A stretch of 64,000 bases of DNA from a virus. Its lineage: Duplodnaviria > Heunggongvirae > Uroviricota > Caudoviricetes. A program made the translations under genes and the position numbers. Where the stretch lies: positions 17,300-81,299 of IMG/VR virus record IMGVR_UViG_2513237361_000012. The stretch is one strand, 5' to 3'. The notes under the pieces were generated by a model. It did not search any database. It was not told where the DNA came from and saw only the letters and a list, made by a program, of their open reading frames with translations. Positions 29,903 through 30,383 of the stretch are shown here, one piece after another. Numbering within the stretch: the first letter of the stretch is position 1; every line of letters starts with the position of its first letter.

Positions 29903-29918
29903 CTGTAAATATAAACAG
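29903..29918. promoter_or_regulatory. LexA box (CTGT-N8-ACAG) upstream of the DinI/Tum-like gene
   Basis: CTGTAAATATAAACAG fits the CTG-N10-CAG SOS box pattern. Confidence 0.5.
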
Positions 29919-30161
29919 TGGATATGCATACAGTATTGCTTGTGGTGTCATAGGAGGAAAAATGCAGGACTATTTTTTGGAGTCTTTGAAGCTCCAGCGC
30001 ATTGATTTTTTTTCTTAAGCTTGTAGCGGCTAGTGAGTGTAGTGATGAAGAGAAGGGGCTGGCTTTGCAGTGGGTTTCTGAATTGACTGATGAACTCATG
30101 GCAAAAATCAGAACCCACGAATACAACCGCTCAATGGATGTCATCAGTTGAGGTGACTTTT

Positions 30162-30383
30162 ATGCGCATTGAAATAATGATCGATAAAGAGCAGAAGATT
30201 AGCCAGTCTATCCTGGACGCCCTTGAATCCGAGCTTTACCGCAATTTGCGCCCCCTGTATCCAAAAACGGTAATTCGTATCCGCAAAGGTAGCTCTAACG
30301 GTGTGGAACTGACCGGACTGCAACTGGACGAAAGAAAGGAAGCAAGTGATGAAAATTATGCAGAAGGTGTGGGAAGACGATAG
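30162..30383 (+). CDS. DinI-family protein (186 Tum-like SOS-inducible factor)
   Basis: Start at MRIEIMIDK with RBS GAGGTG; DinI-like sequence; LexA box upstream. Confidence 0.6.
   Translation: MRIEIMIDKEQKISQSILDALESELYRNLRPLYPKTVIRIRKGSSNGVELTGLQLDERKEASDENYAEGVGRR

Follow-up and report, generated by a model that had tools for sequence, protein, structure and literature searches.

The window analysed here, a stretch of 64,000 nucleotides from the Escherichia sp. TW09308 assembly, very probably contains, directly downstream of gene A, an operon for SOS induction that belongs to a P2-family prophage of the Fels-2/186 type. We propose that LexA occupies an operator that overlaps the −10 element and the start site of a promoter located just 3' of gene A. 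In the lysogen, LexA would silence tum (62 aa) and, 10 nt further on, a dinI-like gene (77 aa), up to a hairpin terminator; these are the lengths of the two genes in relatives, while in the TW09308 assembly each carries a +1 frameshift. Upon DNA damage, RecA-stimulated cleavage of LexA would open the promoter, and the small Tum protein would bind the non-cleavable 186-type CI and keep it off its operators, leading to derepression of the early lytic promoter. The DinI-like protein would be a co-expressed accessory factor, probably a modulator of RecA filaments and of the SOS response, and not the antirepressor. The LexA-tum-CI pathway of 186-like phages is textbook knowledge and its split tumA/tumB form is already described for Fels-2 and PSP3; the system is a known one and the finding an ordinary one.

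LexA boxes and putative promoter downstream of gene A

27394..29808, + strand: replication endonuclease gene A, 804-aa ORF, last gene of the early operon (Phage_GPA, annotation in relatives)
29856..29888, + strand: putative terminator hairpin followed by UUUUAC, 3' of the gene A stop (RNA fold)
29878..29906, + strand: putative P(tum), with −35 TTTACA at 29878-29883, a 17-nt spacer and −10 TACTGT at 29901-29906 (analogy with 186 p95)
29901..29920, + strand: LexA (SOS) box 1, TACTGTAAATATAAACAGTG (consensus match, shuffle test, conservation)
29917..29936, + strand: LexA-like box 2, CAGTGGATATGCATACAGTA (pattern comparison)

Gene A ends at 29808 and box 1 starts at 29901, and the order of these elements is alike in 186, Fels-2, E. 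coli HS and E. coli NCTC8623. The initial annotation, made from the sequence alone, had noted a match to the LexA box pattern at this site. The 16-mer core CTGTAAATATAAACAG lies at 29903-29918 on the + strand, and the 16-mer pattern CTGT-N8-ACAG, taken alone, is weak support for a LexA box; the expectation per window is 0.74 matches, and one or more turned up in 51 of 100 shuffles. The full 20-mer TACTGTAAATATAAACAGTG is strong support. Scored against the 20-nt LexA consensus TACTGTATATATATACAGTA, it has three mismatches and is the sole such site in the window, and none of 100 shuffles contained a match. Box 1 is the same base for base in Fels-2, E. coli HS and E. coli NCTC8623. Among 39 species-level loci, 37 carry a CTG-N10-CAG box 20-77 nt 5' of the orthologous tum gene, and the position of the box is kept across these loci while its central bases differ; for one of the two loci lacking the box, merely 53 nt of upstream sequence is present. 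We conclude that the LexA box is genuine, in agreement with the initial annotation, and that LexA probably binds at 29901-29920.

The first six bases of box 1, TACTGT, are also the −10 hexamer of P(tum), whose placement and exact extent are putative and follow from the analogy with 186 p95. A generic sigma-70 promoter scan gave no site at P(tum) because the −10 hexamer matches at only 3 of 6 positions. Upstream of the box, the RNA fold of 29850-29900 has an energy of −12.6 kcal/mol (z = −4.06), with none of 200 shuffles being as stable. The 3' arm of the hairpin at 29856-29888 overlaps the −35 hexamer, and the hairpin is conserved in Fels-2 and HS. This putative terminator may insulate the SOS promoter from the early operon.

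In addition to box 1, we observed a second LexA-like box that overlaps it by 4 nt, has GTG in place of CTG and differs from the consensus at five positions. Together they form the double-box pattern CTG-N10-CAGTG-N10-CAG at 29903-29934, a layout that is also present in 23 of the 39 related loci and in Fels-2. The colicin N and Citrobacter bacteriocin promoters carry TATACTGTATATAAAACCAGTGGTTATATGTACAGT, in which the second box is that of Fels-2, while box 2 of the window differs from the colicin N second box at four central bases. By layout, boxes 1 and 2 appear to form a colicin-type double SOS operator. Two overlapping boxes have been reported to bind two LexA dimers, preventing untimely expression of a lethal function (PMC2994835). 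A second LexA dimer might likewise bind at box 2, although this is uncertain because GTG stands for the near-invariant CTG.

The 62-aa tum gene and its presumed target

29962..30151, + strand: tum (tumA-type antirepressor gene), RBS AGGAGG at 29952-29957 (homology, synteny)
24044..24613, − strand: 186-type CI immunity repressor, presumed target of Tum (Pfam, identity)

The gene next to the operator was missed in the initial annotation. Box 1 ends 41 nt 5' of tum, the gene that separates the box from the dinI-like gene; in relatives, tum is 62 codons long. It is intact (62 aa) in NCTC8623, FDAARGOS_497, phage 813R9, HS and Fels-2; the protein has 484 homologues and is 98% identical to Fels-2 STM2728. 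A direct BLASTP comparison of the 62-aa protein with 186 Tum returned no match, and Pfam and NCBIfam gave no model for it. At the profile level, the family HMM of the 62-aa protein matches 186 Tum residues 6-47 (14.6 bits, E = 3e-6), phrog_698, phrog_8554 and phrog_1993 are matched by both proteins, and 186 Tum residues 1-70 match phrog_698 at 6.7e-6. These profile matches, together with synteny, indicate that the 62-aa protein is homologous to the Tum N-terminal domain.

The initial annotation had pointed out that the locus takes the position of the LexA-controlled tum of phage 186, and we found the same: p95, the LexA site and tum directly follow gene A in 186. It had, however, given the Tum antirepressor role to the DinI-like protein, and this assignment is not supported. 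In 186, Tum inactivates CI once LexA derepresses p95 (PMC7708051). In Fels-2 and PSP3, a stop codon divides tum, and the upstream of the two resulting genes encodes the antirepressor; for PSP3 the upstream half is reported, with a personal communication cited, to carry the antirepressor activity (PMC3121763). The published primers for the HS delta-tum strain map to 29950-29964 and 30149-30171, which correspond to the start and stop of tum, and deletion of tum in E. coli HS abolished lysis after mitomycin C (PMC11195241). Moreover, in 18 of the 39 related loci, the box and tum occur without a DinI-like gene. Because of the homology to the Tum N-terminal domain, the HS deletion, the PSP3 report and these 18 loci, we consider tumA, not the DinI-like protein, to be the likely antirepressor of the 186-type CI, its activity here being predicted from homology and analogy. 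Public annotation names 186 Tum, and the PHROG family containing it, as DinI proteins, which invites the misassignment made earlier. The 62-aa antirepressor family (phrog_698) is called 'hypothetical protein' in all annotated relatives examined, which is a gap in annotation.

The description of the repressor at 24044..24619 as 186-type was borne out. Phage_CI_repr and Phage_CI_C match the protein at 3e-33 and 2e-27, respectively; its identity to 186 CI is 33%, and it shares 187 of 189 residues with the CI encoded by the E. coli HS prophage. By analogy with 186, this CI is presumed not to be RecA-cleavable. For 186 Tum, binding to CI that blocks its access to the operators has been shown, and contact between Tum and CI would likewise be expected here.

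The dinI-like gene and the end of the operon

30162..30396, + strand: dinI-like gene (tumB-type), RBS GAGGTG at 30150-30155, ATG at 30162 (Pfam DinI, homology)
30405..30434, + strand: terminator-like hairpin GCCCCCA...UGGGGGC followed by UAGUUU (RNA fold)

The DinI-like ORF had been placed about 250 bp 3' of the box and after gene A, which is accurate: its ATG at 30162 lies 242 nt past the box. The gene has 77 codons in relatives. The frame-corrected protein matches Pfam DinI (PF06183) at 1.3e-22 with 80.4 bits against a cut-off of 24.2, and PF06183 is also on record for the as-sequenced 73-aa product. It falls in phrog_189 and, over 186 Tum residues 71-145, reaches 41% identity. Against the NCBIfam DinI equivalog, it scored 42 bits versus the 111 needed; since this threshold is not reached, we refer to a DinI-like protein and not to DinI itself. 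The C-terminal helix of DinI, with its ...VWEDDSW motif, is reported to mediate the interaction with RecA, and this helix was found in every relative. Deletions of dinI in the Gifsy prophages left induction unaffected (PMC3121763).

The Fels-2 homologue of the dinI-like gene is annotated as similar to PSP3 TumB. In all close relatives, tum and the dinI-like gene are parted by a TGA stop (window 30149-30151), the GAGGTG RBS and, at 30162, a new ATG. Judged from the sequence, the module is of the split tumA/tumB form and not a single fused 186-type Tum.

Downstream of the dinI-like gene, the RNA fold of 30395-30445 has an energy of −20 kcal/mol (z = −2.83) and a weak U-tract, and a promoter/terminator pattern scan did not call the hairpin at 30405-30434. 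By analogy with 186, where t95a lies directly 3' of tum, this hairpin would be the counterpart of t95a and would close the SOS operon. The scan called only a weak hairpin at 30140-30157, covering both the stop of tum and the RBS of dinI; we did not deem it a terminator.

Hotspot cargo and extent of the prophage

30572..31630, − strand: PD-T4-7 gene, hotspot cargo (PADLOC 8.8e-144)
32283..34043, + strand: retron Ec67-family RT-Toprim gene, hotspot cargo (PADLOC RT-Toprim_I-C 4e-217; NCBIfam retron_Ec67_fus 3.5e-212)

It had been suggested that SOS induction could activate the cargo of the hotspot that follows the operon. The presence of defence cargo is real (PD-T4-7 and a retron Ec67-family RT), while its activation is not indicated; we rejected SOS transcription into the cargo because the terminator hairpin and a convergent next gene intervene. 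The cargo at the matching position differs in HS, FDAARGOS_497 and 813R9. An Rfam scan of 29000-35000 gave no family, retron ncRNA included.

The prophage had also been described as lacking tail genes, which is correct in part. The window has the baseplate genes and the 5' part of gene H but neither the genes for sheath, tube and tape measure nor the distal ones, because the sequence of the prophage breaks off within the tail-fibre gene H at about 46380. The junction at this site is found in no complete E. coli genome and could be an assembly artefact. The window also contains a Mu-like prophage, which has a 1-bp deletion in its portal gene.

Frameshifts in the TW09308 sequence

Both genes of the operon differ from their relatives in reading frame. 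In tum, a run of eight T (30006-30013) replaces the T7 of all relatives, and the ORF ends at TAA 30016-30018 after 18 codons. In the dinI-like gene, A3 at 30331-30333 replaces the A2 of relatives, and the ORF ends at TAG 30381-30383; consequently, the conserved VMKIMQKVWEDDSWLH C-terminus is lost, with ERKEASDENYAEGVGRR taking the place of the last 21 residues. Both +1 insertions are in the Escherichia sp. TW09308 assembly, within about 3.967-3.973 Mb of AEME01000001.1, and in none of the relatives. As written, the sequence predicts that neither Tum nor the DinI-like protein can be made in functional form. The earlier statement that the element probably retains SOS-inducible derepression therefore fails for the prophage as sequenced, with tum ending after 18 codons and the DinI-like C-terminus lost. 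Inducibility is not readable from the operator alone, and the coding sequence and the assembly need to be checked as well.

We compared the prophage with that of NCTC8623 and found about six substitutions and three insertions, every insertion being +1. The three insertions sit in an AT-rich stretch at 30.0-32.3 kb (36-43% G+C), which counts against real frameshifts because coverage-dependent errors would also cluster there. Among the homopolymer runs of at least 6 compared with references, 4 of 79 are +1 and none is −1; with 4 of 79 long homopolymers differing, we rejected the idea of an error-ridden assembly throughout the window. The A2 to A3 change fits a sequencing error less well because it does not lie in a long homopolymer. 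An exact look-up of the frameshifted products, alternative gene calls included, found the 73-aa DinI-like one in a single public record and no others. A search of the literature for the sequencing platform of TW09308 did not find it.

Alternative explanations

We considered whether the DinI-like protein could be the Tum-type antirepressor of the 186-type CI, controlled by the LexA box about 250 bp upstream. Its 41% identity to the C-terminal half of 186 Tum and the public label of 186 Tum as a DinI protein would speak for this, but we regard it as highly improbable, since the box lies 41 nt from a different gene, the 62-aa tum, and since an in-frame deletion of tum in HS abolishes induction with the dinI-like gene kept. 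The reported activity of the PSP3 upstream half, the 18 of 39 loci with box and tum but without a DinI-like gene, and the Gifsy dinI deletions without effect on induction argue in the same direction. Action of the box on the DinI-like gene at a distance was rejected, as tum is only 41 nt from the box. Even less credible, to the point of being nearly negligible, is that the box is a chance match or unused, with the operon transcribed by read-through from the early operon, or else constitutively. Although the 16-mer is expected 0.74 times per window and the generic scan called no sigma-70 promoter, the 20-mer occurs in 0 of 100 shuffles, its position is kept in 37 of 39 species with variable central bases, and the architecture matches the mapped 186 p95. 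In addition, lexA(Ind-) blocks induction in HS, and a hairpin stands between gene A and the operon.

Taking the region as a LexA-controlled tum operon, we weighed whether the frameshifts reflect the strain or its sequence. If they are real, a rearranged or truncated prophage would have had its SOS trigger inactivated, through neutral decay or through selection against lethal, unproductive induction, and what is left would be a stably repressed carrier of PD-T4-7 and retron Ec67. This account is plausible but not the one that we favor. Consistent with it, both operon genes are struck in an otherwise near-identical prophage, the prophage is broken in gene H at about 46380, the T7 run is a natural slippage hotspot, and the Mu-like prophage in the window also has its 1-bp portal gene deletion. 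However, a ratio of insertions to substitutions of 3 to about 6, with all insertions +1, is very high for natural divergence, and the insertions fall within the AT-rich 30.0-32.3 kb; the frameshifted product is in no other public sequence, and the 46380 junction itself could be an assembly artefact. We suspect that the insertions are sequencing errors, with real inactivating mutations being a substantial second possibility; in the latter case, the SOS switch would be dead in this strain. A more elaborate version, which we think unlikely, holds that the insertions are real and that the T7/T8 tract in tum is a slippage-prone on/off or attenuating switch. The prophage, still with its PD-T4-7 and retron Ec67, would then be 'defused' by the loss of its SOS trigger, possibly in a way that slippage during replication or transcription could reverse, and the colicin-type operator, shared by Col plasmids and Fels-2-type phages, would set a high induction threshold.

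Comparison with known systems

The SOS-induction operon proposed here is closest to those of Fels-2 and the E. coli HS prophage. The SOS region is 97-98% identical to both, and the tum-dinI part is about 97% identical to that of HS. Fels-2, with STM2728 and STM2726.1 (split tum), and PSP3, with TumA and TumB, have the same two-cistron layout as the window (stop, 10 nt, RBS, ATG). In Fels-2 the module also follows gene A, box 1 is identical and a second box overlaps it likewise. In contrast to Fels-2, which is a complete, inducible phage, the cistrons of the window are +1 frameshifted, and the cargo differs. A paper on the Salmonella SOS regulon used a strain without Fels-2 and hence has no bearing on the tum locus. 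The E. coli HS P2-like prophage, whose tum is EcHS_A0919, shares with the window its chromosomal site next to rcdA and the gene order. In the Phollow study, induction of the HS prophage by mitomycin C required tum and cleavable LexA, and lexA(Ind-) blocked it (PMC11195241). Unlike the prophage in the window, that of HS has an intact tum (T7) and dinI-like gene (A2), a full tail gene set and other hotspot cargo.

In coliphage 186, p95, the LexA site and tum directly follow gene A, as in the window. The 186 p95 promoter has −35 TTCACA, an 18-nt spacer and −10 TACTGT, which is the start of the LexA site, and this layout is the same as that of the putative P(tum). The N-terminal antirepressor domain and the DinI-like C-terminal domain of 186 Tum are homologous to the two genes of the window, and in both systems a terminator or terminator-like hairpin follows the tum module and the target is, or is presumed to be, a 186-type CI. 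While Tum of 186 is a single 146-aa fusion with internal starts, the genes in the window are separate, and 186 has a single LexA box and an extra orf97 downstream. Identity to 186 is low, with the N-domain matched by profiles only, the C-domain at 41% and CI at 33%.

[quoted passage not shown] According to Lemire et al., the Gifsy LexA boxes are preceded by terminator-like palindromes (PMC3121763). In the Gifsy operons, dinI comes first, so that the order is reversed, antirepressor and repressor belong to families unrelated to those of the window, and the phages are lambdoid. With the colicin-type double SOS boxes, the window shares the CTG-N10-CAGTG-N10-CAG layout of colicin N. The colicin operators drive a bacteriocin, whereas the operator of the window would drive a phage antirepressor, and the promoter hexamers sit differently. 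In many such prophages, a colicin-like double SOS box takes the place of the single box of 186, and the double box could account for tighter repression of a lethal function.

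The LexA box and the two genes behind it

The sequence CTGTAAATATAAACAG lies at 29903-29918 of the window, 93 nt past the stop codon of the replication gene A (27394-29808) and 242 nt upstream of the start codon (ATG, 30162) of an ORF with a Pfam DinI match. The bare CTGT-N8-ACAG pattern is not significant, with 0.74 matches expected per window and at least one match in 51 of 100 shuffles. The full 20-mer TACTGTAAATATAAACAGTG (29901-29920; box 1), which differs at 3 positions from the LexA consensus TACTGTATATATATACAGTA, is significant: it was matched in none of 100 shuffles and has no second such site within the 64 kb. 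The box statistics and the spacing to gene A and to the DinI-like ORF therefore bear out the initial annotation, which had placed a LexA box upstream of a DinI-like ORF, after gene A.

Window positions 18952-46382 share ~99% identity with E. coli NCTC8623, and within them the prophage portion is nearly identical, at ~6 substitutions. In all five relatives examined (NCTC8623, FDAARGOS_497, phage vB_EcoM-813R9, Fels-2 and E. coli HS), the box is followed by two intact genes, a 62-codon gene annotated as ‘hypothetical protein’ (WP_001154434.1 and relatives) and, 10 nt past its TGA, a 77-codon gene for a ‘DinI-like family protein’. Two single-base insertions set the window apart from all five. The change from T7 to T8 at 30006-30013 ends the 62-codon gene after 18 codons (MQDYFLESLKLQRIDFFS, then a stop), while that from A2 to A3 at 30331-30333 replaces the conserved DinI-like C-terminus (...EERKQVMKIMQKVWEDDSWLH) and shifts the stop codon from 30394-30396 to 30381-30383. 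Only the DinI-like ORF is visible in the raw sequence because the T8 frameshift breaks the 62-codon gene.

The two genes match the halves of 186 Tum

The 62-aa protein has 484 database homologues with a typical length of 62 aa, which span Escherichia, Salmonella, Klebsiella, Enterobacter, Citrobacter, Pectobacterium and others. It matched no family in Pfam or NCBIfam, its PHROG family, phrog_698, is labelled ‘unknown function’, and BLASTP gave no alignment with 186 Tum. The HMM of the 62-aa family matches residues 6-47 of 186 Tum (14.6 bits, E = 3e-6 for the targeted test), and the N-terminal 70 residues of 186 Tum match phrog_698 (6.7e-6), phrog_8554 and phrog_1993, the same three families, at the same positions, as the 62-aa protein. 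STM2728 of Fels-2 is 98% identical to the 62-aa protein, and the Fels-2 gene after it is annotated ‘similar to PSP3 TumB’. The DinI-like protein is 41% identical to residues 71-145 of 186 Tum. Taken together, the N-terminal matches and this C-terminal identity indicate that, by sequence, the 62-aa gene (tum) and the dinI-like gene are the two halves of 186 Tum, with a stop codon and an additional ribosome-binding site between them. Lemire et al. (PMC3121763) already describe such a split for Fels-2 and PSP3, and assign the antirepressor to the upstream gene.

All four tum products bear the name ‘RecA filament binding protein DinI’ in the RefSeq entry for phage 186, and phrog_189, which covers the fused Tum protein, is named likewise, while the stand-alone antirepressor family phrog_698 is the one without a function in its label. 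The functional label in public annotation sits on the wrong half of Tum.

In the Phollow study (PMC11195241), the P2-like prophage of E. coli HS was given an in-frame Δtum deletion, upon which mitomycin C no longer caused lysis; induction also required cleavable LexA. The published primers map to window positions 29950-29964 and 30149-30171; the 3′ limit of the first is the ATG of the 62-aa ORF, and the second runs from the TGA of this ORF into the dinI-like start. Therefore, the ‘tum’ deleted in HS is the 62-aa gene, and the dinI-like gene was spared. The HS prophage shares with the window prophage its chromosomal site, adjoining rcdA, and its gene order; the two CI repressors share 187 of 189 residues, and the promoter and tum-dinI region is ~97% identical, with box 1 unchanged.

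A single scan of species-representative genomes yielded 39 loci encoding the 62-aa protein. A CTG-N10-CAG box, in which CTG and CAG are kept and the central bases vary, lies 20-77 nt upstream of the start codon in 37 of them, and one of the two loci without a box has only 53 nt of upstream sequence. In contrast, a DinI-like gene directly follows tum at just 21 of these loci. What is conserved is therefore the pair of box and tum, with the DinI-like gene as an optional passenger. The tum family has two operator designs: the Pantoea and Erwinia loci have one LexA box, 20-21 nt ahead of the start codon, and mostly lack a DinI-like gene, and the Escherichia, Citrobacter and Enterobacter loci have two overlapping boxes at a distance of 45-49 nt, mostly together with a DinI-like gene.

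Putative promoter and proposed double operator

Regulatory features around the tum-dinI operon
29856-29888: hairpin with a U-run between gene A and the promoter (-12.6 kcal/mol, z = -4.1)
29878-29883 and 29901-29906, + strand: putative tum promoter, P(tum), with -35 TTTACA, 17-nt spacer and -10 TACTGT, the latter at the start of box 1
29917-29936: box 2, LexA-like, CAGTGGATATGCATACAGTA, overlapping box 1 by 4 nt, with GTG for CTG and 5 mismatches to the consensus
30405-30434: stronger hairpin after the dinI-like gene (-20 kcal/mol, z = -2.8)

P(tum) was assigned by analogy with the annotated p95 of phage 186, in which an 18-nt spacer separates -35 TTCACA from -10 TACTGT and the LexA site starts at that -10; the two promoters would have the same architecture. 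A generic promoter scan did not call P(tum), because its -10 is weak. The next gene past the dinI-like gene (30572-31630) is on the opposite strand.

Of the 39 loci, 23 have the combined layout of the two boxes, CTG-N10-CAGTG-N10-CAG, as does Fels-2; phage 186 does not. More than 1,100 plasmids, among them many small, mobilizable ones, were matched by a 50-nt query taken from the Fels-2 operator. Two of these plasmids were inspected; in one the match precedes a colicin N gene by ~40 nt, and in the other a colicin-like bacteriocin gene by the same distance. Both carry TATACTGTATATAAAACCAGTGGTTATATGTACAGT, with a second box that equals the Fels-2 one. In PMC2994835, paired overlapping boxes are reported to recruit two LexA dimers and to guard against premature production of a lethal protein. 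By analogy, we infer that the tum operator of the window lineage is a double operator of the colicin kind, with box 2 as a putative LexA site.

Origin of the frameshifts

The exact 73-aa frameshifted DinI-like product occurs in one public record only, AEME01000001.1 (GCA_000208565.2), a 4.81-Mb contig that a paper citing the accession assigns to Escherichia sp. TW09308. We lean towards sequencing error as the source of the insertions. Compared with NCTC8623, the prophage has 3 indels to ~6 substitutions, and every indel is a +1 insertion (T7 to T8, A2 to A3, and T6 to T7 at 32257). All three fall within the AT-rich 30.0-32.3 kb stretch (36-43% G+C), and of the 79 homopolymer runs of at least 6 in the full set of high-identity alignments, 4 are +1 and none is -1. 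Real inactivation, to which we give a substantial chance somewhat short of even, would fit the one insertion that lies outside any long homopolymer, the T7 tract as a natural slippage site, and the other damage present in the prophage.

Tail genes, cargo and neighbouring prophages

The NCTC8623 alignment stops at 46382, within the tail-fibre gene H, and from 46379 the window matches the middle of the lysozyme gene of a lambdoid prophage on the opposite strand, so that the two alignments overlap by ~15 nt (46379-46394). No complete E. coli genome spans this junction. It reflects either a rearrangement specific to this strain, possibly an inversion between two prophages, or an assembly error that made the single contig chimeric at this point. 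The description of the element as lacking tail genes holds for the sheath, tube and tape-measure genes, which are absent from the window together with the tail-fibre assembly genes and whatever lies beyond, but not for the baseplate genes and the 5′ part of H, which are present along with the capsid and lysis genes.

Two anti-phage systems occupy the hotspot (30572-34043) that separates the tum-dinI operon from the portal gene.

Hotspot cargo
30572-31630, - strand: PD-T4-7 homologue, 352 aa (PADLOC 8.8e-144)
32283-34043, + strand: retron Ec67-family RT-Toprim, 586 aa

The same hotspot holds DUF262 in FDAARGOS_497, Hypoth_Ymh in 813R9 and two hypothetical genes in HS. SOS induction had been proposed to activate this cargo; we found no link between the SOS promoter and cargo expression, and the proposal was not sustained. 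The retron ncRNA/msd is expected just upstream of the RT start codon. The third +1 insertion (T6 to T7 in CCTTTTTTTCC, 32255-32265) lies just upstream of this codon, and an Rfam search of 29000-35000 gave no retron RNA family.

A DUF4917-family gene (21538-22521, - strand, 327 aa), which NCTC8623 has at the same place, separates rcdA from the prophage integrase and is possible cargo of the attL end; in E. coli HS a different small gene takes its place. The adjoining Mu-like prophage (1-18951) is inserted in ybjI, with its transposase at 15655-17742 and head genes at the window's left; compared with E. coli STEC346, a 1-bp deletion at ~4580 splits its DUF935 portal-type ORF (443 aa vs 523 aa). 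The region 46380-63750 is a partial lambdoid prophage with lysis genes, Q, the nin region, replication genes and CI, extending to torI/dsdC. Its CI (54559-55209) is a LexA-family, cleavable-type protein through which the prophage would be SOS-inducible by classical repressor cleavage, so the window would contain two different SOS-induction designs.

Proposed mechanism and comparison with known systems

The CI of the P2-family prophage, 33% identical to that of 186, has the domains Phage_CI_repr and Phage_CI_C. In the proposed mechanism, LexA would repress P(tum), and DNA damage, through LexA self-cleavage, would lead to transcription of tum and the dinI-like gene. Tum would then bind the 186-type CI and keep it off its operator, derepressing the early lytic operon. 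This pathway is established for phage 186 (PMC3121763, PMC7708051) and has genetic support for the HS prophage in PMC11195241; the near-identity of the two prophages suggests that it would also apply to the window prophage. Modulation of RecA and of the SOS response is the probable role of the DinI-like protein. The short Tum products are annotated as modulators of induction in the phage 186 record, and the dinI deletions reported for Gifsy prophages in PMC3121763 had no effect on induction.

The initial annotation was right about the kind of module, given the Tum halves and the 186-type CI, but its choice of the DinI-like protein as the antirepressor gives way to the 62-aa protein, whose gene is the ‘tum’ of HS, and its view of the module as probably functional is at odds with the sequence as it stands, in which both genes are frameshifted. 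The system has been described before in 186, Fels-2, PSP3 and HS, and what the window adds is only mildly new: the colicin-type double operator in its lineage and the annotation gap over the TumA family.
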